Assembly (NCBI GenBank): GCA_025054935.1
Contig: JANWZD010000001.1
Span: 201,008 to 265,007, forward strand
Source of the DNA: Dehalococcoidia bacterium
Lineage (GTDB): Bacteria; Chloroflexota; Dehalococcoidia; SpSt-223
Reading direction: 5' to 3'
Length of the DNA: 64,000 nucleotides
In this document: one piece after another, positions 9,989 through 44,660 of the stretch
Layout: each line of letters begins with the position of its first letter
Numbering within the stretch: position 1 is the first letter of the stretch
Notes under the pieces: model-generated
What the model was told of the DNA's origin: nothing
Database searches by the model: none
What the model saw: the letters and a program-made list of their open reading frames with translations, nothing else
Translations under genes and position numbers: made by a program

Positions 9989-11236
9989 TTAGATCACAAT
10001 GAACGGTACCCGCATTTCCGACGGCGTCAGCCCAGAGTGATGGGAGACAAGAGCGGCGAACCGGTCCACTTTTCCGGGGGCATATTCGATGACGTCGGTG
10101 CCGGTCGAGATGACGATCAGGTCGCCGAGGCGGGCGCGGGTGTGGCTGCTCAGCGGGCCGGGCCCAAACAGTTCGAGGCGCTCTGCTTCGTCAGTTGAAA
10201 TCACCAAGAATCGCGAGCCGTAATGGTGATGGAACCAAGCCCGCACCCGGTCAGCCGCTCCATCGCGGACATGGAGGTAGAGCACCCGGCTATCGCCTGA
10301 GGGAGGAAAGCGCAGAGCTTCGAAAAGGCCGGCGGACGGCCGCAGATAGTGGCGGGCCGTCACCGGCGTGTCGAGGAGACCGTGGTCGGCCGTGATCACG
10401 ATCCGGCTCCGACCGTTGAGGCTGCGTGCGAGCCGTTCGACCTGACGGCTCAGTTCGGCGATGGCGGTTCCGACCATCGGATGAAAGACCCCGTGGTAAT
10501 GCGCTTCGAGATCGATCTGGGGCGCGTAGAGATAGCTGTAGGTTGGTTCGCACGCTCGGGCGATGCGGTCGACCAGAAAATCGACTGCATCGGTCAGCGC
10601 CCGATAGCCGCCGCGAACTCGCTCTCCCGTGAAGTAGGCAGATGAGACACTGTTGACCAAGTTGTCGGGGAAAAGCGCGATGGTGTCCCGCCGCAGCGCC
10701 GCATAGACCGATGGAATTGGAAACGCTTGAGAGACGGTAATCCCGAGACTGGCGAGGGAGCGGCCGCCCGCGCGGGTCGCGAACTGAAGGAGCCCCGCTG
10801 CCGCCTCCGCCTCGGGCAGGTGGGTCCATTGCCCGGTCACGCCGTGGAGGTTGGGCCAGGTGCCGGTCGCAAGCGAGGTGAGCGCCACCGAGGAGGTGGA
10901 GGGGAAGACAGTCCGCAGTTCGTCGACGACTGCTGCGGCGAGAATGTTGTCCCGCGGCAGCCGCTCCACCAGGTTCATCCCGAGCCCATCCGCTAGAATG
11001 AAAATCAAATGATCCGGGTCGCCAATGAGGGCGGCGAGCTTACGCGCGGTCGGGGTCAGGTCAACGGTGTCGGCTCCGGCGACGTGAGCCAGCGCCCGCG
11101 AAAGGTCAACGATGTTCGGGGACGCGGCGCTGGGGCGCAGCAGAGACCCTTCCTCAAATCGTCGCAGCAGCCGGTGGACATCAGTCTGGTCGGTCAGTTT
11201 GGCGTTCCCCCCTCGGTCAGATCTCAGGTGCGACAT
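9989..11236 (-). CDS. Alkaline phosphatase superfamily protein (type I phosphodiesterase/nucleotide pyrophosphatase-like)
   Basis: LIFILADGLGMN, STSSVALTSLATG and IVITADHGL are the metal-binding/nucleophile motifs of the AP/NPP family. The start is uncertain; the gene lies only 23 nt from the divergent GTG of the next gene. Confidence 0.75.
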   Translation of the reverse strand: MSHLRSDRGGNAKLTDQTDVHRLLRRFEEGSLLRPSAASPNIVDLSRALAHVAGADTVDLTPTARKLAALIGDPDHLIFILADGLGMNLVERLPRDNILAAAVVDELRTVFPSTSSVALTSLATGTWPNLHGVTGQWTHLPEAEAAAGLLQFATRAGGRSLASLGITVSQAFPIPSVYAALRRDTIALFPDNLVNSVSSAYFTGERVRGGYRALTDAVDFLVDRIARACEPTYSYLYAPQIDLEAHYHGVFHPMVGTAIAELSRQVERLARSLNGRSRIVITADHGLLDTPVTARHYLRPSAGLFEALRFPPSGDSRVLYLHVRDGAADRVRAWFHHHYGSRFLVISTDEAERLELFGPGPLSSHTRARLGDLIVISTGTDVIEYAPGKVDRFAALVSHHSGLTPSEMRVPFIVI

Positions 11237-11259
11237 AATCCTAGCGCAGCGAGGGCGCA

Positions 11260-13422
11260 GTGCTAGCAGCGTTCACGCTCGACGATCTCGCCGCCCAGCT
11301 TGGAGAAGAGTACTGCACGTTGCCGGAGGCCGACCGCCGACGTCACCTTGAACTGCTGCGCGAGGTGCGTCGCCCTGATGCCGTTGCACTCGACGTAACG
11401 CCGCTCGGCGAGAACCGCTGGCGGGTGACAGTCTGTATGGCAGATGCGCTCGGCGCGCTCTCGGTGCTGGCCGGACTGTTTACCGCGCTCCGCTTAGATA
11501 TCGTTCGCGCGGATATTTACACCGTTCGGGTTCCTGTGCGCCAGACGGGAAAGCGGCCCCTCTTTCGCCGGGGAACGAGTGAACTTCCTGAGCCCTCGCG
11601 CCGACTGCTCGATATCTTTGAGGTGCGCGACCTCGCGGCTCGCTCCAACGCGCTGTGGGAGGAGTTTGCCGCCGAACTGCGCCGCCTCGTCGCTGCCCGG
11701 GTTGCGGGAGCGTGGGAGAATGCGCGGGCCGATCTTATCGACCGGGTGAGCGCGGTCTTCCGCGAGGCAGAGCCAGGGTCGGTGCGGGTGCGGCCCGTAC
11801 AGATCGACGTGGCCAACGACCCGGGGGTCCCCCTCACCCGGGTGACGGTCCGTTCTGCCGACAACCTCGGCTTTCTCTTTGCCTTCACCAACGCGCTCGC
11901 CGGGATCACCGTGAATATCGAACGCGCGACGGTCCGGACCGATGCCGGCGAGGCGGTCGACACCTTCTGGGTGACCGATGTTGCCGGTCGGCAGATCACC
12001 TCGCCGGAGCAGCTCCGTGAACTGCGGGTGGCCACCGCCCTCATTAAGCAGTTCACCGACCTGCTTCCGCACTCGCCGGACCCGGCGCAGGCGCTTCACC
12101 AGTTCAGCGCCCTCATCCAGCAGATGCTCTCGCGTCCGCAGTGGACGAACGAGCTCGCCGACCTCGAGTCGCCGGCTGTCCTCGAGACCCTCGCCGAGCT
12201 GATGGGAGTCAGCCGCTTTCTCTGGGAGGACTTTCTCCGGCTCCAGCATGAGAACCTCTTTCCGGTGCTGCTCGACCTCGGCGGACTGAGCCGGTCCATC
12301 ACCCGCGACCAGCTTGAGCAGCGGCTGAACAGCGTGCTCGCCCCGCTTGCCAGCCGCGCCGAGCGGGTCGACGCTCTGAATGCCTTTAAGGACCGCGAGA
12401 TGTTCCGGATCGATCTCCGGCACATCACCGGCCGCAGCACCTTTCAGACCTTTTCCCGCGAGTTGACTGACCTCGCCGAGCTCGTGATCGACACCGCTGT
12501 TCGCCTCAGCTACGACGAACTTGTTCTCCGCCACGGCGAGCCGCGCAGCGGGAGCGGCCGGTGCGGCTGGGCGGTCGGCGGGCTGGGCAAGTTTGGCGGC
12601 CAAGAGCTCGGGTTTGGCTCCGACCTTGAGCTTGTGCTGGTCTTTGAGGAGGAGGGCGAGACCGCAGGGCCAGAGGTGGTGCGCAACTCGCAGTTCTTTG
12701 CCCAGCTCGTTCTCTCGTTGAAAGAGCACGTGCGCGCTCGAGAGCAAGGGATCTTTCAGCTCGACCTCCGCCTCCGTCCCCACGGCGAGGCTGGCGCACT
12801 TGCCTCCTCCCTTGAGGGATACGCGGCCTACTACACTCCGGGCGGAGGCGCAGAGCAGTTCGAGCGGCTCGCGCTCGTTCGCTTGCGGCCGGTAGCAGGC
12901 GACCGGTCGGTCGGCGAGCGCATGCTCGCTATTCGGGATGCCTTCGTCTATGCCGACCGCCCGCTTGATTTTGACAACATTCTTCACCTTCGCCACCGTC
13001 AAGCCACCGAGCTGGTTCCCCGAGGGCGGCTCAACGCGAAGTACAGTCACGGCGGGCTGGTCGATATTGAGTACTACGTTCAGGCATGGCAGATCGGCGC
13101 CGGCCGAACCGACCACTCCGTTCGCGTCACGAACACCCTGCTCGCCACAGAGCGGCTGCGCGCCGGCGGCCATCTTCCTGAGCTCCTTGTCGAGGAGCTC
13201 CAGTCGACCTACAGCTTCCTGCGGCGCCTGATCGATGCGCTCCGTGTCGTCCGCGGCAATGCCAAGGACCTGACCATCCCCGAGGAGCGGTCGCGCGAGC
13301 TCGCCTATCTTGCCCACCGGCTTGGAATTGCCGAGCCGTCTCTCCTGCTCACCGCTATCCGTGACCGGATGGCATTTGCGTCTCGCCTGTGGCAAGGGCC
13401 GCTTCCGCGATGGGACAACTGA
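11260..13422 (+). CDS. GlnE/GlnD-family nucleotidyltransferase with two N-terminal ACT domains (putative glutamine-synthetase adenylyltransferase-like regulator)
   Basis: NTase signature GWAVGGLGKFGGQELGFGSDLELVLVFEEEG. It is followed by a GlnE-type helical domain (LDLRLRPHGEAGALASSLEGYAAYY...FERLALVRLRPVAGD). Two ACT-like segments at the N-terminus (RVTVCMADALGALSVLAGLF...; RVTVRSADNLGFLFAFTNALAGITVNI). GTG start with a GAGGG SD. Confidence 0.8.
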   Translation: MLAAFTLDDLAAQLGEEYCTLPEADRRRHLELLREVRRPDAVALDVTPLGENRWRVTVCMADALGALSVLAGLFTALRLDIVRADIYTVRVPVRQTGKRPLFRRGTSELPEPSRRLLDIFEVRDLAARSNALWEEFAAELRRLVAARVAGAWENARADLIDRVSAVFREAEPGSVRVRPVQIDVANDPGVPLTRVTVRSADNLGFLFAFTNALAGITVNIERATVRTDAGEAVDTFWVTDVAGRQITSPEQLRELRVATALIKQFTDLLPHSPDPAQALHQFSALIQQMLSRPQWTNELADLESPAVLETLAELMGVSRFLWEDFLRLQHENLFPVLLDLGGLSRSITRDQLEQRLNSVLAPLASRAERVDALNAFKDREMFRIDLRHITGRSTFQTFSRELTDLAELVIDTAVRLSYDELVLRHGEPRSGSGRCGWAVGGLGKFGGQELGFGSDLELVLVFEEEGETAGPEVVRNSQFFAQLVLSLKEHVRAREQGIFQLDLRLRPHGEAGALASSLEGYAAYYTPGGGAEQFERLALVRLRPVAGDRSVGERMLAIRDAFVYADRPLDFDNILHLRHRQATELVPRGRLNAKYSHGGLVDIEYYVQAWQIGAGRTDHSVRVTNTLLATERLRAGGHLPELLVEELQSTYSFLRRLIDALRVVRGNAKDLTIPEERSRELAYLAHRLGIAEPSLLLTAIRDRMAFASRLWQGPLPRWDN

Positions 13423-15169: not shown

Positions 15170-15322
15170 CCGTCCGCCCTCCGAACGTTGCTCGGTCCAG
15201 CATACACGGTGCTGCCGAGGCAGGGTTCACGCACCTGGTTGCGTTCTGCACCTAACCAAGCGCAGAATTTGCCCGTCTCGCGGTGCGCGACGGCGGGCCG
15301 GAGCGAGGCGAGTGAGGGGAAC

Positions 15323-17278
15323 GTGCAGGTCAAGACGGCGCTCGCAGCAAGCATGCTCATGCTGGCGGGAAGCGCCCTTTTTTTGCTTGGGGTCGTCGCC
15401 GCGGTCGTGATCGCGGAAGGGCGAGGCGCGCCGCTCGAAGAGCGGTTCTTCGAACTCCCGCTTCTGCCGACTGCCTCCCCAACCGCGACGGCGACGCAAG
15501 TCCGGCCCTCGCCGACGGCAACAGCGCCGCCTCCCCCGGCTTCCCAGCTCTATTTCCGCTGTAACGACGGCACGCTGCTCATCGGCACAAGCCGGGTCGG
15601 CGCCTGTGAAGGACGCGGCGGAATTGCCCAAGTGTCCGATGTGCCATTTTCCGCCGAGAGCCCGGTGCCTGCCTTGATCCCGCCGCTGCTGGCTACTCCT
15701 CCCGCTGAGACCGGCGCTCCCAGCACTCCCACGCCGACCCCGACGACCTTCACCTCTTTCGCTCCCGCGTTGCCGAATGCTCCCCGGGAAGCTGCGCAGC
15801 CGTCTCCCACCCCAACCCCAGAAGCGACCCCAGAGCCGACCGCAACGGCCACGCCGACCCCTCGCGCAGAGCCGACGCCGACCCCAACCCCGCTCCCTGC
15901 CCCAACGGTCACTGTCGTTCCAGCCGACCAGCAGCCTCGGCTGCCGCCGGGCGCGCCAGCCAGCCGCTCCACCCTCGCCGGGCTGTGGCACGCGCCGGTC
16001 GAAGATGATGTCTTTCTCGGACGACTGGAGGAGAGCGGCGCAGGATGGGTGCGCATCTTTCTGAGGTGGGAGCGTATCGAGCCGGTTGAAACGACGCCGC
16101 CGTCGTACGACTGGGCAGCGAGCGACCAGGCGCTTCGATTCGTGCGCGAGCGCGGGCTTCAGCCTCTCGTCACCATCGTTGATCCGCCGTCATGGGCAGC
16201 ATTTCCGACCTGTGGTCCCTTCCGGACTGAGGCGGCGCGGGACCGCTGGCTGCGGTTCGTCCGCGCGGCGGTCGAACGCTACTCGCGGCTTCCCTACGCC
16301 GTTCGCTATTGGGCGCTCTACGACGAGCCGGATTTCCGCATCCAGAACCCGAACGACAAGTTCGGGGGAGGCGCGGGCGGCGGCTGCTGGGGCAGCCATC
16401 CAGCCGACTACGGCGCGATGCTGCGGGCAACCTACCCTGTCATCAAGGCCGCGGACCCTGCGGCGCTCGTTGTGCTCGGACCGCTCGCTGCTGATGGCTG
16501 CGAGCCGACCTACAACTGCGAGTTCTTGCGTGAGGTCCTCGACCCGGCGAAGGGAAACGCGGGCGCAAGCTTCGATGTGGCGGCGTTCAATTACTTTCCC
16601 GTGTACCGCCGCGGCTGGGAGCGGTTTGGTGCCTCATTGCTTGGGAAAGCGGAAGGCATCCGGCGCACGATGGCCGAGTTCGGGGTCTCGAAACCGGTGC
16701 TGGTCGCCAAAACAGGCATTCTGCTCGACGGCAGCGAGGCGGCAAGGGCGCAAGCGAATTACGTCGCTCAGGCGCTTACGCTCGGCTTGGCCGACGCGGG
16801 CCGCCCTGACGGCCTCGGGACGCAGGCGGTCATCTGGTTCTCGCTTCGGGATAGCGATGACCCCAACGACCGGTGGGGGCTGGTTGATGCCTCGGGAAAC
16901 CCGAAAGAGTCGTTCTTGGTCTTCCAGGCATGGGTCAAGGAGATGACGGGGCTGCGCTTCGCCCGGAATGAGAGCGAGCCGACCTACGGCAGCGGCCCGG
17001 CGACGCCCTGCGACAGCGGCCCCTATCGATGCGACGCGCTTCAGAAATATGTCTTCGCCGCCGGAGACCGGGAGAAATGGGTGCTCTGGGTTGACGCCGG
17101 TCCCCATCGCCAGCCCGACCGGTTCACCACCACCGCAACGCGGGTTGTCGAGGTGCCTGCTTCCCGGGTGATCGCGCTGCGCAATCGCACCGGCGACCCT
17201 CTTCCCTATGAAGTCGTCCAAGATCAGGCGCGCATTGTGGTGGGAGAGAGCCCGCTCTATCTGACGCTCCGCCGCTAG
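15323..17278 (+). CDS. Membrane-anchored glycoside hydrolase-like protein (GH5/GH39-type TIM-barrel) with an N-terminal Cys-containing DUF3761-like module and a Pro/Thr-rich linker
   Basis: GTG 15323 with a GAGGGG SD. N-terminal TM anchor (ALAASMLMLAGSALFLLGVVAAVVIA). YFRCNDGTLLIGTSRVGACEGRGG module. A roughly 90 aa PT-rich linker. The catalytic domain carries WALYDEPDF and GH-like motifs. Upstream ORF-track residues (from 14930) are antisense to the TPP gene. Confidence 0.7.
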   Translation: MQVKTALAASMLMLAGSALFLLGVVAAVVIAEGRGAPLEERFFELPLLPTASPTATATQVRPSPTATAPPPPASQLYFRCNDGTLLIGTSRVGACEGRGGIAQVSDVPFSAESPVPALIPPLLATPPAETGAPSTPTPTPTTFTSFAPALPNAPREAAQPSPTPTPEATPEPTATATPTPRAEPTPTPTPLPAPTVTVVPADQQPRLPPGAPASRSTLAGLWHAPVEDDVFLGRLEESGAGWVRIFLRWERIEPVETTPPSYDWAASDQALRFVRERGLQPLVTIVDPPSWAAFPTCGPFRTEAARDRWLRFVRAAVERYSRLPYAVRYWALYDEPDFRIQNPNDKFGGGAGGGCWGSHPADYGAMLRATYPVIKAADPAALVVLGPLAADGCEPTYNCEFLREVLDPAKGNAGASFDVAAFNYFPVYRRGWERFGASLLGKAEGIRRTMAEFGVSKPVLVAKTGILLDGSEAARAQANYVAQALTLGLADAGRPDGLGTQAVIWFSLRDSDDPNDRWGLVDASGNPKESFLVFQAWVKEMTGLRFARNESEPTYGSGPATPCDSGPYRCDALQKYVFAAGDREKWVLWVDAGPHRQPDRFTTTATRVVEVPASRVIALRNRTGDPLPYEVVQDQARIVVGESPLYLTLRR

Positions 17279-37734: not shown

Positions 37735-40700
37735 CTAGTTCTCAATCACGATGCGGACGACTTTTCTGCCTCCTGTATCGACGACATAGAACCTGCCGTC
37801 GTCCGCCGCGACAATCTCAACCGGCAGCGTGAACAGCCCGGGCGCGCCGCCAACCTGCTGGACCCCTTCACGAACGTCGTAGCGCACGAGGCGGCCTCGG
37901 TCCGGGTCGGTGACCACCGGTCGGGAAGCAGCGTCGAGCACGAGGTGAGGTCCGTTCAGCGGGACAGACCAGTTGATCGGCCATTCCGCTTGATAGCGGC
38001 CGCCGGGGTCGAACCATTGGAGACGCTTGTTGCCGGTGTCGAGAACGAGGAGGTCGCCGGTCGGAAGCAGGGCAGCGTCGGTCGGTTCCAGCATCTCGCC
38101 CGGACCGGCGCCCTTTCTCCCGCCGTAGATGGTCAGCAGCTGGCCGTCGGAAGCGAACTTGAGCACGCGGTTTTGCCCCGTGTCGGAGATATAGAGATTG
38201 TCCGCCTCATCGATCGATAACCCGCGCGGCTTGTAGAAGTCGGACCGCGCTAACGGCAGCCGCCCCACAAACCGGCCGTCATCAAGGCGGTATTCGTGGA
38301 TCCCGGCTGTTGTCGCATCAAGGATGAACACTCGCCCCGATCGGGTGATGGCGATCCCGGTCGGCTCTTGGAGGCCGCCTGCTGTCGGCTCTGGACCCGC
38401 ATACGCGCGGATAAACTGCCCCTGGGGATCGAAGACGAGCACTCGCCGCGCTCCTCCATCAAGCACGTGCAGAGCGCCGGTAGGGTCAAGAGCAGCAGCG
38501 CGCGGCTCCTCAAGCCGTCCCTCAGGGGAAAGTCCGTAGGTCATCTCGACTCGAAGCGAGAGCGGCGGGCCGCTTGCGAAGCGCACGACGCCGCTCGGGA
38601 CGCGGACGGCGGCCTCTCGGGGAGCCGCAGGCACGGTCGGGCTCGGGGGAAGATCGCTCCCTTGGGGAGGCAGCAGCACCGCTGACGGGATCAGCTCGCG
38701 TCGTCGCCCTGGCGGCGTCCAGTAGAGGTAGATGCGCGAATAGGGATCGCGGTCGACGAACTTCAGCTGGAGATCGTGCAGCCCTGCCTCGAGCGGCACA
38801 TCTACCTCGTGGAGTTCGCTGCCGCGACGATTGTCGATAATCAGCCGGCCATTGAGAAAGAGTTGGGAAGTGCTGATCTGCTCTGTCCCAAAGCGGTAGA
38901 CACCTGGCTGGTCGATCCGGAGCGTGCCGCGCCACTCCACGCTGTAGGGGCGAGGAAGGGGCAGAATGTGGAAGTACATGCCGATCTGCGGATCGATCCG
39001 GAGAAGGGCGGGCTCTCCTGCCCACTCGGCGTTGGGATAATACGCGCCGAGCAGCCCTGTCGCCGCAACGGGAGGGAGATAGAAGAGGTTGGAGGGGATC
39101 GGGCTGAGCGTGCCGCCCGGCGGCTCCCAGGCCAATCGGACTGGTTGGCCTGGGCGGTCGGCACGAGCTCGGAGCAGGAGAGCGTGGTTGCCGGCTGCGA
39201 GGGTCAGCCGCGCTGCCTGGCCTCCGGTGAGCACGCGCGCGCCGTTGAGGAACAGCTCGGCACTGCTCGGTCCTTCAAGGAGCAGCCGGTAGCTGCCGTG
39301 CCGGGGAACGTGGAGCGTGCTCCGCCACTCCGCAAGCACCGGAACCGCGAGGCCGAGCGTGGCCGGGTCGATGTTGATCTCGGTCTCGCGGCGGCTGAGA
39401 TCGGGCCGCTCGCGTTCAGTTCCGTGCGCGAAGTAGCGCGCCTCAACGCCTTGGATGGCGACGATATCGGCCGGCGCGAGCTGAACAGCGTAGACGAGCG
39501 GAGGTCCGCCGAAGGGCGGACGCAGCTCCTCGACTTGGGCGCTGGGATAATAGAGCCGAAGCTGGCTGAACGCCGCCTGCTCGCTCGGGTCGAGGAAGAA
39601 GAAGGTCCGCGGAGCAACGGCGCGCACCGGTACGTCTGTTGCGGCGTTGAACAGGGCGCCTTCGGGCGCCTTCGGGGCGAGGAACCGGATTGTAGGCGGT
39701 CGGCCGGAGAAGAACTGGCTGAGGTAGACTGCATCGTTCGGAGAGAGCTCGCGAAGCCGCAGGGCAACGAGCGTTTCGGCCGCGGAATGGGCCGCAAAGG
39801 CGGCGAAGTCGTTTGCCCAGGCGACGAAGTAGCGATGATGGTTGACGACGGCGACGAAGAGGAGGGCGCTGCCGAGAGCGATGGTGCCCCCCGCTCGCCA
39901 AGCTCGCGACCATGCCGACGGGCCATGCCACCGCGCGGGGAGACGCGGAAACGTTCCAACCAGCAGCGCTCCGAGCGAGAGCGGGGTGCGGCTGCTGCGC
40001 GCGGCGGCCGCCGGGTTGCCGTACGTCCCCCAGGGGCTGCGCACCCAGCGGTCCCAGAGCGCGCCGAGCGGCAGCGCCGCAAAGATGAGCGTCGGCGGCA
40101 GCGCGGTCGATGCGCGCAGCGACTGCGGAGCTTCAAAGTTGAGGGAGAGGATCCCTCCAAGCAGCATCGTTCCCCACCAGATGATGAGGGTCGGCCCAGT
40201 CGGGCGGCGAAGCAGTCCCAACGTCAGCCCCACGCCGAGAACGAAGAGCGGCGCCAGAAGCGGGTCGAGCATCGGCCGGCCGGGAAGGTTATGGCGGCCA
40301 TTGCGGTCCCCCGCCACGTTAAACATCAGCAGGTGCTTCTCGATGTTGTCGAGCAGCGGGCCCCAGTGACCGGCTCGCTCCACTTCGGGCATCACGCTTG
40401 CGACCCCAAGCCTACGGTTGAACTCCTCGGGGAAGCGGACTGCAAACCATGCCAACGGCCCGGCCGCAATCAGCGCCGCGAGGGCGAGGAGGAGTGCGCC
40501 TTGGCTGATCGATGGCCAGAGCGATCGCCGCCAGAGCGCAGCCGCGAGGAGCAGAACGGCGAGGGTTACCGGGAAGATCCGTGACGGGAAGTAGAACTGG
40601 AGGTCGAACCCGACAAGAAGGCCGGCGATAACGAAGTCGCGCGGCCGGCGGTCTTGCAGTCCCCGCACGAGGAAAAACAGGACGAGCGTCTCGAGGGTAA

Positions 40701-41550
40701 TGCTGAAGATTGCGGTGCTGGTCGGAAAGCGGCTTAGGGTGACGTGCCAGCTGGAAACGGCGAGAAACCACGCCGCAATGAGCGCGATCCGCGGCGAGCC
40801 GAAGAGCCGGCGGGTGAGGAGGTAGATCGCGGGGATCCCCACGGTTCCCGCAATCGCTGTGGTCACCCGCAAGGCAAGAGGAGTCTCTCCGAAGACGAGC
40901 ATCGCGAGGGCGGCAAGGTAGATATTCGCCGCCGGGTTTTGGTTTTCGACGTAAAAAATCGGCCGGTATGTCGGCGAGGCGAGGATCTGCTGGGCGCCAA
41001 GGCCGACGACCGCCTCGTCGTACCACACTCCGAAGGGGAGCGTCGCTAGTTCTGCGGTACGGAACCAGAGCCCGACTGCGGTCGCGAGGGCGAGGATGGC
41101 CAGTTCAGCTCGGCCGATTGGCGGGCTGACCGGTGTCCGCGTGCCGGCCGGCAGCAGGAAGGCTGCGCCGAGTGTCATCGCAACAGCGGCGAGGTAGAGG
41201 AGCCAGGCGAGGTTTGGATTGCGGTCGCTTGAAAACAGCCAGAGGGAGCCTCCAAGGAAGAGGAAGGCAGCCGCGCCGGCAAAAGCTGACGGAAGCGCGG
41301 CCGTCAGCCGCGGCCAACGGCCTGTGCTCTCCCAGCCGTCAGGACCGGTGGCGGGCAGCGCGTACTGCGCCAGCGCGATTGCAATAAGGAACGCCGCCCC
41401 AGCAGCGATGAGGTCCGGCGGCTGGCTCAGGTAGCGAGCATTGGCGGCGACGGCGAGGACAATGGCGACGATCCCAGCGAGGAGGCGGCGCGGCTGCGAC
41501 GGGAAGAGGAGCCGGGTCGCCGAGCGGGAGGAGGGCGCCGCTGGTGCCAT
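37735..41550 (-). CDS. Large GT-C/GT39-like polytopic membrane glycosyltransferase homologue fused to tandem PA14 domains and a C-terminal NHL-repeat beta-propeller (1271 aa)
   Basis: N-terminal about 550 aa with more than 10 TM helices and a PMT/ArnT-like loop (GVWYDEAVVG). Middle: two PA14 signatures (GLLGAYYPNAEWAGEP...YRFGTEQISTSQLFLNGRLIID...LYW and an earlier degenerate copy). C-terminus: NHL repeats (YISDTGQNRVLKF, LVLDTGNKRLQWF, FYVVDTGGRKVVRI). Confidence 0.8.
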   Translation of the reverse strand: MAPAAPSSRSATRLLFPSQPRRLLAGIVAIVLAVAANARYLSQPPDLIAAGAAFLIAIALAQYALPATGPDGWESTGRWPRLTAALPSAFAGAAAFLFLGGSLWLFSSDRNPNLAWLLYLAAVAMTLGAAFLLPAGTRTPVSPPIGRAELAILALATAVGLWFRTAELATLPFGVWYDEAVVGLGAQQILASPTYRPIFYVENQNPAANIYLAALAMLVFGETPLALRVTTAIAGTVGIPAIYLLTRRLFGSPRIALIAAWFLAVSSWHVTLSRFPTSTAIFSITLETLVLFFLVRGLQDRRPRDFVIAGLLVGFDLQFYFPSRIFPVTLAVLLLAAALWRRSLWPSISQGALLLALAALIAAGPLAWFAVRFPEEFNRRLGVASVMPEVERAGHWGPLLDNIEKHLLMFNVAGDRNGRHNLPGRPMLDPLLAPLFVLGVGLTLGLLRRPTGPTLIIWWGTMLLGGILSLNFEAPQSLRASTALPPTLIFAALPLGALWDRWVRSPWGTYGNPAAAARSSRTPLSLGALLVGTFPRLPARWHGPSAWSRAWRAGGTIALGSALLFVAVVNHHRYFVAWANDFAAFAAHSAAETLVALRLRELSPNDAVYLSQFFSGRPPTIRFLAPKAPEGALFNAATDVPVRAVAPRTFFFLDPSEQAAFSQLRLYYPSAQVEELRPPFGGPPLVYAVQLAPADIVAIQGVEARYFAHGTERERPDLSRRETEINIDPATLGLAVPVLAEWRSTLHVPRHGSYRLLLEGPSSAELFLNGARVLTGGQAARLTLAAGNHALLLRARADRPGQPVRLAWEPPGGTLSPIPSNLFYLPPVAATGLLGAYYPNAEWAGEPALLRIDPQIGMYFHILPLPRPYSVEWRGTLRIDQPGVYRFGTEQISTSQLFLNGRLIIDNRRGSELHEVDVPLEAGLHDLQLKFVDRDPYSRIYLYWTPPGRRRELIPSAVLLPPQGSDLPPSPTVPAAPREAAVRVPSGVVRFASGPPLSLRVEMTYGLSPEGRLEEPRAAALDPTGALHVLDGGARRVLVFDPQGQFIRAYAGPEPTAGGLQEPTGIAITRSGRVFILDATTAGIHEYRLDDGRFVGRLPLARSDFYKPRGLSIDEADNLYISDTGQNRVLKFASDGQLLTIYGGRKGAGPGEMLEPTDAALLPTGDLLVLDTGNKRLQWFDPGGRYQAEWPINWSVPLNGPHLVLDAASRPVVTDPDRGRLVRYDVREGVQQVGGAPGLFTLPVEIVAADDGRFYVVDTGGRKVVRIVIEN

Positions 41551-41555
41551 CGCGG

Positions 41556-44500
41556 TTAGGGAAGCGGGTCAAATCGTTGGACGCGAGCGTTATTGCTGTC
41601 AACGACAAAGAGCGCGCCGTCCGGCCCGACGGCGACGCCAATGGGGAGATTGAAGCTCCCGGGCTCGGCGCCGAAGCGGCCCACGACATTGAGAAGCTGC
41701 CCTTCCGGCGAGAACCGGAGCAGCCGGTGGTTCTCGGGGTCGGAGACGATGACATTGCCGCTCGGGTCGACCGCGAGATACGGCTTGTTCAGAATGCCGG
41801 TGCTCTCCCAGCCGCGGATCGGGGTCGCCCCCAGGGGGCGCAGGCTCGCGTCGAACCGCTGGATCCGTCGGTTCCAAGTGTCGGCGACGAAGATCGTGCC
41901 ATCGGGAGCAACGGCAATCCCGACCGGTTCTTGGAACTGCCCGAGCATGGCGCCGGCGCCGCCGAAGGCGCCGAGAAACTGCCCGTCCGGCCGGAAGCGC
42001 TGTATCCGCTTGTTGCCGGTGTCGGTGACGAGCAGCGACCCGTCATCGAGGAAGGCGATCGCGCGCGGCCCGTAGAACCGGCCGGGATTTCCCGTCACCT
42101 GCCCGACCGACTCGCCGAACTCGCCAAACTTCCGCAGAAAGCGGAGATCGGCGGTGAACTGCTGGAGGCGATGGTTCCAGGTATCAGCGACCCAAACGGT
42201 GCCGTCAGGCGCGATGGCGATCCCCCACGGCTCGGTGAATTCACCATCAAGCGTTCCCCGGCGGCCGACCTGAGCGACCACGCGGCCGGAGGGATCGAAC
42301 TTCTGCACCCGATGGTTACCCGTATCGACGACGTAGATGAAGCCGTCTCCATCGACGGCGATGCCGCGGGGCTCGAGCAGTTGTCCTGCGCCGCTGCCGC
42401 GAGCGCCGAAGGCTGCGCTCGGCTGAAGAGGGGTAAGCGCGAGAGCGTATTCATCCGGTTGCGCCGGCCGCGCCGGGCCGGCGGTCAGCGGCTCGCCGGC
42501 GAGAAGGGAGCTCTTGACGAAGAAATAGCCGTCTTCCGAGCCGAGCGGCTTGCCCAGGTCGCGGTTGAAAAAGTACTGCCACAGCCGTTCTAGCCCGGTG
42601 GGACTGAGCGACGCCGCGACGGCATCGCTGAACCCAAACGCGCTGTTCGGGCGTCCCGGCTGAGCGGCCAAGGGGGAGCCCATCGCGGCCACCCACTCGA
42701 TAGCGCTCTTGTAATCCTCGGGGAACCACCAGCGATGACGGTAGCGCTGCCCGGGGGTGTAGTCGCTCAAATACGGGCGCATCCGCTCCACATTGTTGGC
42801 GTGGATAAGCACCACCTGCCCGGCGGGCGGAGCAGCAGCACCGCTGTAGGAGGGGTAGTCGACGTTCGGGTAGTGGCGGAGATACCACGCCCAGGGCCAA
42901 GTAAAGCCGCTGGTGCTGTCGACGGAAATGCGCAGCTCTTTTCCGCCTGTAGCCCGGAGAGAGAGCCGTTCGATTTCGCGGTACAGCCGAGGGATATCCG
43001 GGGAGGTTTGGGTGTAGATCAGCATCTCGGTGGCGATATCGCCGTGTTTGTAGGTGACAGTCCACGCAGCGCGCATCGTGAGGACGAGCAGGATCAGGAC
43101 GATCGCGCCGCTTGCGGCGCGGACGATCCCCGAGCCCCCGAACGGTGCCCCAACCTGAACAGCGGCCCCGACAAGGAGCAGCGCGATCCCGATCAGGGCG
43201 AGCGCTTGGCCGTTCCATCCCGGTGCGAGGTCGGCGGCGGCTTGAATCAGGCCGGCGGCCCCTGCCGCAAGAACGACCGCTGCCGCGATGAAGAGCGCAA
43301 CCACCGCGGCGGCCCGCCACGCCACGTCCGAGTTCCACCGCACCCCCTCAAGCCACCAGCCTGCTGAGCGACCCGCAAGCACGATCAGCGGCAGCGCGAC
43401 GTGGACAAGCAGCCACGGCATCTTCTCGCCTGCCCAGCTGTACGCAACGAGCGAGCCGACAAACCAGTAGAAGAGAAACGCAACGAATGGTGTCAGCCTC
43501 TCCCGGTGGCGAACGAGGGAGGCAATCCCTGCGCCGGCAAGGGCAAGCGGAAGGAATTCATAGAGCGGCAGCAGCAGGAGGTAGTAGTACCACGGCTGGT
43601 TGCCGCGCTGCACCCCATGCTGGTCGAGCCAGTAGGCGAGACTGCCCCAGACCCCAGACCCGATCCCCGGCAGATTGGTAAAGAAGGTGCTGTACAGGAG
43701 CACGAACACTGTCCAGAAGAGCGCCGCATATCCCGGCCAGACGGTTCGGTTCCACCACAAGCCGACGGCGGTCGAGATGACAAAACAGATGCCAGCGATC
43801 ACGAACTGCGAGAAGATCGCCCGCGTGGTCACCCAGGGCCCAAAAGCGATGACAGTCGGGTCTGTCGAGACGAGGGGTGTCAGCTTCGCAAAAGCGGCGA
43901 GCAGGGGCAGAGTGAGCGTGCCGAGCAGGATCAGGACGCCGAAGATCCTGTTGTCCCGCACCTCCTCCAAGCGAGGAAGGCGCCCTTTCCCAGCGAGATC
44001 CCACAGCCAATAGGCGGTGAAAAAGCTGCCGAACACCGCAACGGTAATGTAGTGGGTCTCCTTTGCCGAAAAGCCGAGCGCCATCATCAGCGTCCCGAGA
44101 TAGAGCCAGCGAACTTCCTTGCGCTCGATGTACCGCCAGGCCGCGAGTGCCAAGAGGAGGGTGAAGACCGCCATCAGGATGTCGTTGCGGGAAAAGCGGC
44201 TGTAGTACAGCATCGTCGGCGAGAAGGCGAGCAGCACCGCCGTGACGAGCGCGCCGCCGCGGCCGAGGAGGTCGCGCATGAAGAAGGGGAGGAGAACGAG
44301 GACGGTCCCAAAGGTCGCGTAGAGGAGGCGAGCCGTGACGTCGTTGTCGCCAAACAGAAAGTAGATCAGGGCGTTTACGTGAAACTGAAAGGGGCCGTGC
44401 ATCATCGGGTCGTGCTGGTAGCCCCGCCCGGCGTAGAGATACCAGCTATAGAGCACGTGCAAGCTCTCATCGTGATGCATCGCGCGCGTTCCGAGATCCC

Positions 44501-44660
44501 AGAACCGCATGATGGCTGCGACAAGGGTCAGCCCAGCGTAGGCCAGCGTCTCCCAAGTGACGCTGACGACGCTGAACACCCGGTCAACAGCGTCGCCGCG
44601 AGCGGAGAGCGAGCGGAGAGGGAGAAGAGCTCGAGTCATGCGCCTGCTCCTCGCTGGCAC
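41556..44660 (-). CDS. GT-C fold membrane protein (DE motif HHDESLH; TIGR03663-like by my recollection) with a C-terminal six-bladed NHL-repeat beta-propeller (1034 aa)
   Basis: N-terminal roughly 650 aa hydrophobic, with an extracytoplasmic first-loop DE motif typical of GT39/GT83. C-terminal NHL repeats (YVVDTGNHRVQKF, WVADTWNHRLQQF, LVTDTGNKRIQRF, FVADTWNRRIQRF, IVSDPENHRLLRF, FVVDSNNARVQRF). 5 nt gap to the downstream gene. Confidence 0.8.
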   Translation of the reverse strand: MPARSRRMTRALLPLRSLSARGDAVDRVFSVVSVTWETLAYAGLTLVAAIMRFWDLGTRAMHHDESLHVLYSWYLYAGRGYQHDPMMHGPFQFHVNALIYFLFGDNDVTARLLYATFGTVLVLLPFFMRDLLGRGGALVTAVLLAFSPTMLYYSRFSRNDILMAVFTLLLALAAWRYIERKEVRWLYLGTLMMALGFSAKETHYITVAVFGSFFTAYWLWDLAGKGRLPRLEEVRDNRIFGVLILLGTLTLPLLAAFAKLTPLVSTDPTVIAFGPWVTTRAIFSQFVIAGICFVISTAVGLWWNRTVWPGYAALFWTVFVLLYSTFFTNLPGIGSGVWGSLAYWLDQHGVQRGNQPWYYYLLLLPLYEFLPLALAGAGIASLVRHRERLTPFVAFLFYWFVGSLVAYSWAGEKMPWLLVHVALPLIVLAGRSAGWWLEGVRWNSDVAWRAAAVVALFIAAAVVLAAGAAGLIQAAADLAPGWNGQALALIGIALLLVGAAVQVGAPFGGSGIVRAASGAIVLILLVLTMRAAWTVTYKHGDIATEMLIYTQTSPDIPRLYREIERLSLRATGGKELRISVDSTSGFTWPWAWYLRHYPNVDYPSYSGAAAPPAGQVVLIHANNVERMRPYLSDYTPGQRYRHRWWFPEDYKSAIEWVAAMGSPLAAQPGRPNSAFGFSDAVAASLSPTGLERLWQYFFNRDLGKPLGSEDGYFFVKSSLLAGEPLTAGPARPAQPDEYALALTPLQPSAAFGARGSGAGQLLEPRGIAVDGDGFIYVVDTGNHRVQKFDPSGRVVAQVGRRGTLDGEFTEPWGIAIAPDGTVWVADTWNHRLQQFTADLRFLRKFGEFGESVGQVTGNPGRFYGPRAIAFLDDGSLLVTDTGNKRIQRFRPDGQFLGAFGGAGAMLGQFQEPVGIAVAPDGTIFVADTWNRRIQRFDASLRPLGATPIRGWESTGILNKPYLAVDPSGNVIVSDPENHRLLRFSPEGQLLNVVGRFGAEPGSFNLPIGVAVGPDGALFVVDSNNARVQRFDPLP

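Follow-up and report, generated by a model that had tools for sequence, protein, structure and literature searches.

ACT domains sense amino acids, and the locus described here raises the question of what such a sensor does when it stands in front of a nucleotidyltransferase (NTase) of the GlnE type, and why the gene for the resulting enzyme lies back to back with a gene for a phosphodiesterase (PDE). The locus is part of a 64-kb stretch of DNA from a Dehalococcoidia bacterium (contig JANWZD010000001.1, positions 201,008 to 265,007; hereafter the window), and its central gene encodes a 720-residue protein, here called the ACT-NTase, with two N-terminal ACT domains, one GlnE-type NTase domain and a C-terminal helical domain. 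Protein AMPylation and the covalent-modification cascade both have their founding example in GlnE, which adenylylates glutamine synthetase (GS). Canonical GlnE has no ACT domain and is regulated through PII and glutamine; to our knowledge, work on GS adenylylation has been confined almost entirely to Proteobacteria and Actinobacteria. We suggest, at a probability of roughly 45%, that the ACT-NTase is an amino-acid-gated, probably glutamine-gated, GS adenylyltransferase whose phosphorolytic adenylyl-removing (AR) partner has been replaced by a hydrolytic de-AMPylase of the NPP type, the product of the divergent PDE gene. What can be read directly from the loci, and on which this suggestion builds, is the architecture of the protein, the intact catalytic motifs of both proteins, the pairing of their genes, the mutual exclusion of PDE and AR module, the linkage to glnA and the NPP fold of the PDE.

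The open reading frame (ORF) of the ACT-NTase (Table 1), which has a GAGGG Shine-Dalgarno-like motif 4 nt upstream of its start codon, contains a single PF03710 and a single PF08335 stretch by Pfam, and no HD domain was found in Pfam and NCBIfam scans. The NTase domain, which scores 152 bits against a PF03710 cut-off of 24, matches both halves of E. coli GlnE in sequence (PDB 3k7d and 1v4a, E ~1e-30), and a Foldseek search with the AlphaFold model of the whole protein (pLDDT 84.9, pTM 0.73) recovers the adenylyltransferase (AT) domain 3k7d at E 3e-20 and the AR domain 1v4a at E 4e-18. Within the catalytic NTase motif, G443, K444, G446, G447, E449, S454 and D455 are invariant in the family and E457 is kept in at least 90% of its members, while the DxRLRP motif that carries the third carboxylate is found in both modules of the longer relatives described below. 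Scores against the NCBIfam equivalog models fall far short of their cut-offs for GlnE (NF008292, 222 against 487; NF010706, 211 against 724; NF010707, 166 against 625) as well as for GlnD (TIGR01693, 48.5 against 519; NF003467, 56.7 against 959), the GlnD models aligning with the ACT region only, and NCBIfam holds no model for the ACT-ACT-NTase family.

Evidence for the ACT pair comes from profile alignments, from homologs and from the predicted fold. Three GlnD equivalog models align, through their C-terminal ACT-ACT part, with residues 13-256 (E 9e-16 to 4e-13). The Pfam ACT model (PF01842) gives 18.7 bits over residues 194-240 of the window protein itself, below its cut-off of 27, but the second ACT unit of homologs at 50-57% identity scores 30.7-39.4 bits, above the cut-off, and in one homolog ACT_4 matches the first unit at 22 bits. 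In the AlphaFold model, residues 42-148 and 181-271 form two beta-alpha-beta-beta-alpha units, which Foldseek matches to the ACT-like domain of GL3 (TM-score 0.74), the regulatory domain of IlvA, PGDH and SerB with probabilities of 0.97-1.0, the tandem-fold matches spanning about 200 aligned columns. The loops between beta1 and alpha1 are well conserved in the family: D62 is nearly invariant and G65 and L67 are invariant in the first unit, and G204 and F205 are invariant and D201 is conserved in the second. For seven family members (P0012, P0021, P0046, P0054, P0075, P0105 and P0124) a precomputed Pfam match to PF26956 is on record; it was not among the results of our local Pfam scan of P0012 and P0021, and the model may be a newer one that covers part of the ACT/linker region.

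The original prediction for this locus, made from the letters and ORF translations of the window, had proposed the order ACT-ACT, NTase and helical domain in a protein of 720 residues without an HD domain, and this order is confirmed by Pfam, the GlnD models and the AlphaFold/Foldseek comparison, the N-terminal ACT pair by the GlnD-model alignment, the Pfam scores of homologs and the fold, with the sub-threshold Pfam score of the protein itself as a reservation. It had also called the architecture non-canonical, which holds in comparison with GlnE and GlnD but does not make the protein a peculiarity of this genome, as at least 208 species genomes contain a family locus (pattern scan, one genome per GTDB species). 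These lie in Dehalococcoidia, other Chloroflexota (Anaerolineae, Caldilineales), Planctomycetota, Opitutales, Desulfuromonadales and Abditibacteriales. A database search returned 1650 homologs of the ACT-NTase, and the ACT-ACT region alone is represented by 261 sequences (50% identity clusters, E <= 1e-10). A sequence identical to that of the window protein has been deposited from a Chloroflexota metagenome-assembled genome (MAG) as 'hypothetical protein', and family members are annotated in their sources as 'hypothetical', as 'ACT domain-containing protein' or with a generic GlnE name. We considered whether the gene is a truncated or fragmentary glnE, in particular a canonical glnE cut short beside glnA, the outcome that the original prediction had named as one that would refute it, and reject this because about 100 of the top 120 homologs are full-length proteins of 704-753 residues, the NCBI gene call is identical and conservation begins at residue ~5.

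The ACT-ACT-NTase(-helical) unit is the constant core of the family and is found in four arrangements: (a) preceded in the same polypeptide by a second, AR-like GlnE module (AR-ACT-ACT-NTase, ~1200 aa), (b) followed in the same polypeptide by this module (ACT-ACT-NTase-AR, ~1150-1300 aa), (c) with a separate AR-like gene for ~475 residues on the same strand 3-5 nt upstream (Opitutales, Abditibacteriales and others), and (d) alone, as in the window. The family is a GlnE derivative, whose relatives join the same unit to a second AR-like GlnE module. Arrangement b is seen in the permuted long forms P0452, P0453, P0461, P0462, P0464, P0479, P0487, P0498, P0504 and P0505 (1150-1300 aa), in which an AT-like NTase motif ending in SDxE (where the motif search found it) is followed by an AR-like motif, ELN[YF]SSDxD[LF]; these forms imply that the second module can be fused on either side of the core. 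In every arrangement the module adjacent to the ACT pair carries GK[FL]GGxELG[FY]xSD[IL]E, with DxE in 100 of the 100 short forms checked, and the other module carries GKLGGxELN[YF]SSD[IV]DL. The corresponding motifs of E. coli GlnE are ELGYSSDLDL (AT half) and ELNFSSDIDL (AR half), a comparison by which the module next to the ACT pair is AT-like and its companion AR-like.

If the ACT-NTase is a writer of AMP groups, the question becomes what removes them where the AR-like module is missing. We compared the neighbourhoods of 80 species-genome loci, with flanks within 10 kb. Homologs of the window PDE (40-83% identity) are present in 44 loci, all from Chloroflexota/Dehalococcoidia, and in 40 of the 44 the PDE gene adjoins the ACT-NTase gene on its upstream side and is transcribed away from it, the two starts being 28-334 nt apart (median 88). 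An AR-like module, fused or adjacent, is present in 15 loci, and not one of the 80 has both. This mutual exclusion points to an eraser role for the PDE. Unbiased clustering of all ORFs found no other broadly conserved neighbour across the 80 loci, and the PDE pairing is kept down to 40% identity of the PDE and 45% identity of the NTase, surviving deep divergence while other synteny decays. The test in the reverse direction, starting from independently found metagenomic PDE homologs of at least 42% identity with enough flank, found the ACT-NTase gene divergent and adjacent in 10 of 15 cases, and at least 26 PDE matches in the databases lie on contigs of the same size as contigs with ACT-NTase matches. 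The neighbour that the original prediction described, of the alkaline-phosphatase family and divergently transcribed at a distance of 23 nt, is confirmed, and its idea of a phosphodiester-processing partner holds, the PDE being the sole broadly conserved neighbour. Its idea of a shared regulatory region says too little of the PDE, whose distribution is mutually exclusive with that of the AR module.

A distal AR gene could in principle serve the PDE-linked genomes, and database matches give indirect negative evidence on this point. Among the top 120 matches to an AR profile, none lies on a contig matching in size the ~18 chromosome-scale contigs that carry PDE pairs, and none of the named matches is labelled Dehalococcoidia. 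Both standalone AR genes that were examined sit directly upstream of an ACT-NTase gene. In a neighbour-joining tree of the ACT-NTases (no support values), the AR-linked forms are basal and belong to various phyla, and the PDE-linked forms make up the large Dehalococcoidia/Chloroflexota clades. Two labels are out of place in the same tree: L065, labelled Pedobacter sp., falls within the Desulfuromonadales clade and L014, labelled Gemmataceae, within the Chloroflexota clade, which suggests mis-binned contigs or horizontal transfer and makes these two taxonomic labels look doubtful.

The PDE itself looks like an active NPP enzyme. Residues D83, D242, H246, D284, H285 and H400, which make up a complete two-metal site, are invariant in two independent alignments, and position 115 (Thr/Ser) aligns to the nucleophile of autotaxin. 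A structure prediction based on database homologs (pLDDT 93, pTM 0.91) gave only ENPP/NPP enzymes among the top 50 PDB matches in Foldseek, including snake-venom PDE (7cba, 5gz4). By inspection of the sequence only, the PDE shows no signal peptide, and its N terminus is polar and disordered; with neither a signal peptide nor a membrane anchor evident, the PDE is probably cytoplasmic. It shares PF01663, the two-metal site, the Thr/Ser nucleophile and the fold with the NPP/ENPP enzymes (Xanthomonas NPP 2gsn, ENPP1-7 and snake-venom PDE), but it is only 12-18% identical to the solved NPPs (TM-score ~0.6), the Asn that follows the nucleophile in the FPN motif of ENPPs is not conserved in its family, and, unlike known NPPs, it is genetically paired with an enzyme of the protein-AMPylating type. 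AMP-tyrosine is a phosphodiester, and it was with snake-venom PDE, in use since 1967, that AMP was first released from adenylylated GS. The classical use of this venom enzyme to strip AMP from adenylylated GS in vitro is the only precedent for such an activity, and a 2025 review gives the GlnE AR domain, FICD and SidD as the known erasers and lists no NPP-type enzyme (PMC12409994). Our own search for literature that combines de-AMPylation with nucleotide pyrophosphatase found no paper, subscription-only papers being outside the search, and the same holds, with the same limit, for GlnE combined with ACT domains and for Chloroflexi combined with GlnE.

The wider PDE family also recurs beside GS genes. 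Distant PDE homologs (32-39% identity) at loci L104, L126, L140, L141, L151, L154, L158 (7258-8301, minus strand) and L160 are directly followed by a convergent gene for a compact, GSII-like GS of ~347 residues (Gln-synt_N plus Gln-synt_C) and are usually preceded by one for a DUF255/thioredoxin protein. The same recurrence is seen in the adjacency of glnA and PDE at L006 and L010. Most of the distant loci share synteny, so they stand for few independent events.

What, then, does the ACT-NTase modify? The original prediction spoke of an unknown target, which now seems too cautious. A GSI-type glnA lies within 10 kb of 7 of the 80 family members, often directly adjacent, and no PII gene adjoins any of the 80. 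PDB 1pil served to validate the PII query, and positive matches in other loci validate the GS query. The seven glnA-linked loci consist of 5 of the 15 AR-linked loci and two PDE-linked loci, L006 and L010, in which the order is glnA-PDE<>ACT-NTase. The six complete glnA genes among them keep the GSI-beta insertion and the adenylylation tyrosine, in the motif N[IL]Y[DE].xPEE, and for the L006 gene product matches to solved GSI structures reach E 4e-194. In the window itself, tblastn detected neither glnA nor a PII gene nor a further GlnE module, in line with the original remark that glnA, glnB and glnK are not nearby.

Together, these observations lead us to a writer/eraser model of protein adenylylation, in which the ACT-NTase would modify a target, most likely type I-beta GS, and the PDE would reverse the modification. 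The ACT pair, homologous to the glutamine-responsive ACT pair of GlnD, would bind an amino-acid effector, most likely glutamine, and the bound effector would gate the GlnE-type NTase next to it by way of the long helical linker. That the glutamine response of GlnD requires its ACT domains has been described (Zhang et al. 2010, as cited in PMC11190351). When nitrogen is plentiful, the NTase (motifs GKxGGxELG..SDxE and DxRLRP) would use ATP to adenylylate GS on its regulatory tyrosine, so that nitrogen status would be read directly, without a GlnD/PII cascade. In other phyla, the AR-like second module would remove AMP by phosphorolysis, whereas in Chloroflexota/Dehalococcoidia the cytoplasmic NPP-family PDE would hydrolyse Tyr-O-AMP, release AMP and thereby reactivate GS. 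At the level of the loci, the family is a widespread, unnamed variant of the GlnE system with ACT domains built into the putative writer, and in one large lineage a PDE takes the genomic place of the AR module. Only tentatively do we extend the model to the statement that GS control in Chloroflexota/Dehalococcoidia is a PII/GlnD-independent two-gene AMPylation switch, in which a GlnE-type adenylyltransferase would sense glutamine directly through its fused, GlnD-like ACT domains and the ancestral phosphorolytic AR would have been non-orthologously replaced by a standalone cytoplasmic NPP-family PDE; this PDE would be the first dedicated de-AMPylase of the alkaline-phosphatase superfamily and a counterpart in nature to the laboratory use of snake-venom PDE.

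Several points weigh against this model. The GS substrate, the glutamine effector, the AMP group, the action of the PDE on AMP-tyrosine and the genome-wide absence of AR are all things that we infer from the loci. The window NTase is equidistant from E. coli AR and AT (29-30% identity; 177 and 163 bits by hidden Markov model (HMM)), and neither HMM nor BLAST nor Foldseek comparisons separate the two assignments, the short ELG/ELN motif being all that distinguishes them; as overall similarity is equal to both E. coli halves, we infer the writer role from this motif, from the position of the module in fused relatives and from the logic of the system. For the sensor, an hhalign comparison of the family ACT region with the single E. 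coli GlnD sequence is weak (probability 26%, E 7e-4), the second ACT unit being the one that aligns, with the first ACT domain of GlnD. For the substrate, glnA is near only 2 of the 44 PDE-linked loci and is absent from the window. For the eraser, the exclusion of PDE and AR follows phylogeny and may therefore reflect only one or two evolutionary events; the absence of AR is a property of the loci, and the PDE-linked genomes may hold a distal AR or a canonical GlnE elsewhere; and only about 1 in 22 PDE homologs below 42% identity is paired with an ACT-NTase, the others being in other contexts, so that the pairing is specific to one subfamily within a broader PDE family. Finally, 21 of the 80 loci have neither PDE nor AR, including a Desulfuromonadales clade and a small Dehalococcoidia sub-clade, from which it follows that an ACT-NTase can exist without an adjacent eraser. 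Short forms with neither partner within 10 kb are found at L056-L059, L063-L068 and L071-L073 (Desulfuromonadales and other Deltaproteobacteria MAGs) and at L033, L051, L052 and L055 (Dehalococcoidia); no conserved eraser-like neighbour was found at such loci, where the flanking genes are heterogeneous (PCC, DUF4136, NUDIX, SDR, ABC ATPase, GAPDH and PFOR-beta).

These points leave room for an alternative that keeps the ACT-gated GS adenylyltransferase and gives the PDE no part in AMP removal. Removal would then fall to a distal AR-type protein or to the same NTase running in reverse, or would not occur at all, modified GS being lost by dilution or turnover, and the PDE would be co-located for another reason, for example the scavenging of nucleotides or phosphodiesters co-regulated with nitrogen status. 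Beyond the loci without either partner, the local nature of the AR absence and an NTase that sequence does not assign to AT or AR, this alternative gains from the usual substrates of PF01663 enzymes, which are small-molecule phosphodiesters, and from PDE homologs in unrelated contexts, next to purine-synthesis genes or a DUF255 protein. We nevertheless regard it as unlikely. The two standalone AR genes that were examined adjoin their ACT-NTase genes rather than lying elsewhere; none of the top 120 AR-profile matches is on a contig matching in size the chromosome-scale contigs with a PDE pair; a pairing that persists at 40-50% identity after other synteny has been lost is hard to explain without functional coupling; the PDE lacks the evident signal peptide of typical scavenging NPPs; and its family recurs beside GS genes.

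A second alternative takes its cue from the ACT pair, which is homologous to that of GlnD, and from the helical domain, which matches PF08335. On this account, the ACT-NTase would be a GlnD analogue that uridylylates or adenylylates PII, or another regulator, on a tyrosine, with the PDE standing in for the HD domain. UMP removal by GlnD is hydrolytic, as is the NPP reaction, while the AR reaction of GlnE is phosphorolytic, so the chemistry of the PDE would suit this role, and the lack of glnA in the window is compatible with it. We find it improbable, however, as the NTase is of the GlnE type (PF03710, 152 bits) and the scores against GlnD models come from the ACT region only, the relatives carry a second, AR-like GlnE module and not an HD domain, and glnA is found beside 7 of the 80 loci and PII, with a validated query, beside none. 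That the pair makes and breaks a small-molecule nucleotide signal, or modifies a small molecule in the manner of CBASS-like defence or of aminoglycoside NTases, is very improbable: an NTase next to a phosphodiesterase is a generic layout for synthase and hydrolase of a second messenger and Foldseek gives weak matches to the aminoglycoside NTases AadA and ANT(4''), but PADLOC returns no match for the NTase and only a weak PglZ-motif similarity for the PDE, which led us to reject a defence system, the strongest sequence and structure matches are the protein-AMPylating enzymes GlnE AT, GlnE AR and DrrA, and the alternative partner in the family is an AR-like GlnE module, with glnA a recurrent neighbour.

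Returning to the writer/eraser model, the ACT-NTase can be placed between three known systems. With E. coli GlnE (b3053) it shares the NTase and helical fold, PF03710 and PF08335, and the motifs G-x-G-G-x-E...S-D-x-[DE] and D-x-R-L-R-P, and its GlnE-like two-module relatives adjoin GSI-beta genes with the adenylylation tyrosine; it differs in having one NTase module instead of two, without the AR half, in the ACT pair that precedes the NTase, in the catalytic DxE in place of DxD and in being only 29-30% identical to either E. coli half. With GlnD (NTase-HD-ACT-ACT) it has in common the homologous ACT pair, the PF08335 helical domain and the logic of fusing an amino-acid (glutamine) sensor to a protein nucleotidyltransferase, to which hydrolytic removal would be added if the PDE is the eraser; it is distinguished from GlnD by the reversed order with the ACT pair N-terminal, by the lack of an HD domain, by the GlnE-type NTase and by PII genes that are never adjacent. 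The third parallel is the Legionella pair DrrA (SidM) and SidD, in which the writer also has a GlnE-like NTase, DrrA being the fourth-best fold match of the window protein (E 7e-5), and the eraser is a metal-dependent hydrolase of unrelated fold encoded beside the writer (PMC12409994). SidD is PP2C-like and not NPP-like, however, DrrA has no ACT sensor, and the Legionella proteins are secreted effectors that act on host Rab1 and not housekeeping regulators.

The family may show how a regulatory cascade collapses into one sensor-enzyme in which ACT domains stand in for GlnD and PII, and it may also show that the eraser half of such a system is evolutionarily exchangeable. If the PDE is the eraser, de-AMPylases would comprise a fourth mechanistic class beside those of the GlnE AR domain, Fic/FICD and SidD, and many cytoplasmic proteins known only as "alkaline phosphatase family proteins" would gain a physiological role. 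Family members now go by the names 'hypothetical protein', 'ACT domain-containing protein' or, which is misleading, that of a full bifunctional GlnE; defining the family clearly would improve the annotation of nitrogen regulation in abundant uncultured lineages such as marine and subsurface Dehalococcoidia, Planctomycetota and Verrucomicrobiota.

Table 1 Features of the ACT-NTase locus and positions of the upstream element in other loci (window coordinates unless a locus is given)
Feature	Position	Strand	Evidence or remarks
PDE gene, NPP-type PF01663 two-metal phosphodiesterase, 415 aa	9989..11236	-	Pfam E 2e-17, 64.1 bits against cut-off 23
Divergent intergenic gap, 23 nt	11237..11259	.	between PDE and ACT-NTase genes
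ACT-NTase gene, ACT-ACT / GlnE-type NTase / helical domain, short form of the family	11260..13422	+	GTG start, 720 aa, ORF confirmed
ACT unit 1, residues ~42-124, disordered insertion 91-113, beta1-alpha1 loop motif D62-x-x-G65	11383..11631	+	GlnD-model alignment, predicted structure
ACT unit 2, residues ~181-245, loop motif D201-x-x-G204-F205	11800..11994	+	Pfam, predicted structure, hhalign
GlnE-type NTase domain, PF03710, residues 309-556	12184..12927	+	Pfam E 2e-44, 152 bits
Catalytic NTase motif G443-K-F-G-G-Q-E-L-G-F-G-S454-D455-L-E457	12586..12630	+	DxE variant, 'ELG[FY]' signature as in E. coli AT
Third-carboxylate motif D502-L-R-L-R-P507	12763..12780	+	D502, R504, L505, R506 and P507 invariant in the family
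C-terminal helical domain, PF08335 (GlnD_UR_UTase type), residues 590-690	13027..13329	+	Pfam E 1e-8; helical in predicted model
11-nt upstream element	L005:7455, L006:3373, L007:9870, L008:8248, L012:9870, L017:9896, L018:9891
11-nt upstream element, further loci	L020:9870, L032:9916, L034:9820, L038:9800, L046:9785, L048:9796

The remainder of the window consists of housekeeping genes. Among the other neighbours of the pair, a thiamine pyrophosphate (TPP) enzyme and SRAP are kept only in the one to three closest genomes, and we reject them as functional partners since they are conserved in the closest relatives only. Downstream of the TPP enzyme gene, at ~15320-17278 (plus strand; L001:10240-12195), a 651-residue protein is called whose N-terminal half is of low complexity and rich in Pro, Thr and Ala, with no Pfam family on record. 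Farther away, at 37735-44660 (minus strand), two adjacent genes encode proteins of 1271 and 1034 residues with an N-terminal PMT_2 glycosyltransferase-like membrane domain and NHL repeats, the first of which also contains a PA14 domain; they sit in a stretch with strongly positive AT skew and GC skew and are unrelated to the ACT-NTase. An Rfam scan of the window gave no family at threshold.

The short distance between the two divergent genes constrains how they can be transcribed. The PDE ORF has no alternative ATG, GTG or TTG start before its conserved part, and 23 nt are too short for two separate promoters, so each promoter would have to lie in or beyond the 5' end of the other gene; a consensus scan found no sigma-70-like site. 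Nor was an inverted-repeat operator found in the divergent intergenic regions of the family, the observed maximum being 6 loci against a null maximum of 5. The window likewise lacks an 11-nt element, ATG[CT]TATCATG, its nearest look-alike being GACATAATCC at 11232-11241. Elsewhere this element is invariant and lies on the coding strand of ACT-NTase genes, upstream of them by 40-270 nt (Table 1). A search of both strands of the loci, 1.42 Mb in all, finds the 10-mer TG[CT]TATCATG 13 times, always at that upstream position; in one of these loci the PDE is 6.6 kb away, and the flanks of the element are not conserved between clades. The element resembles an extended -10 box, but so invariant a sequence points to an operator or to a special sigma factor.

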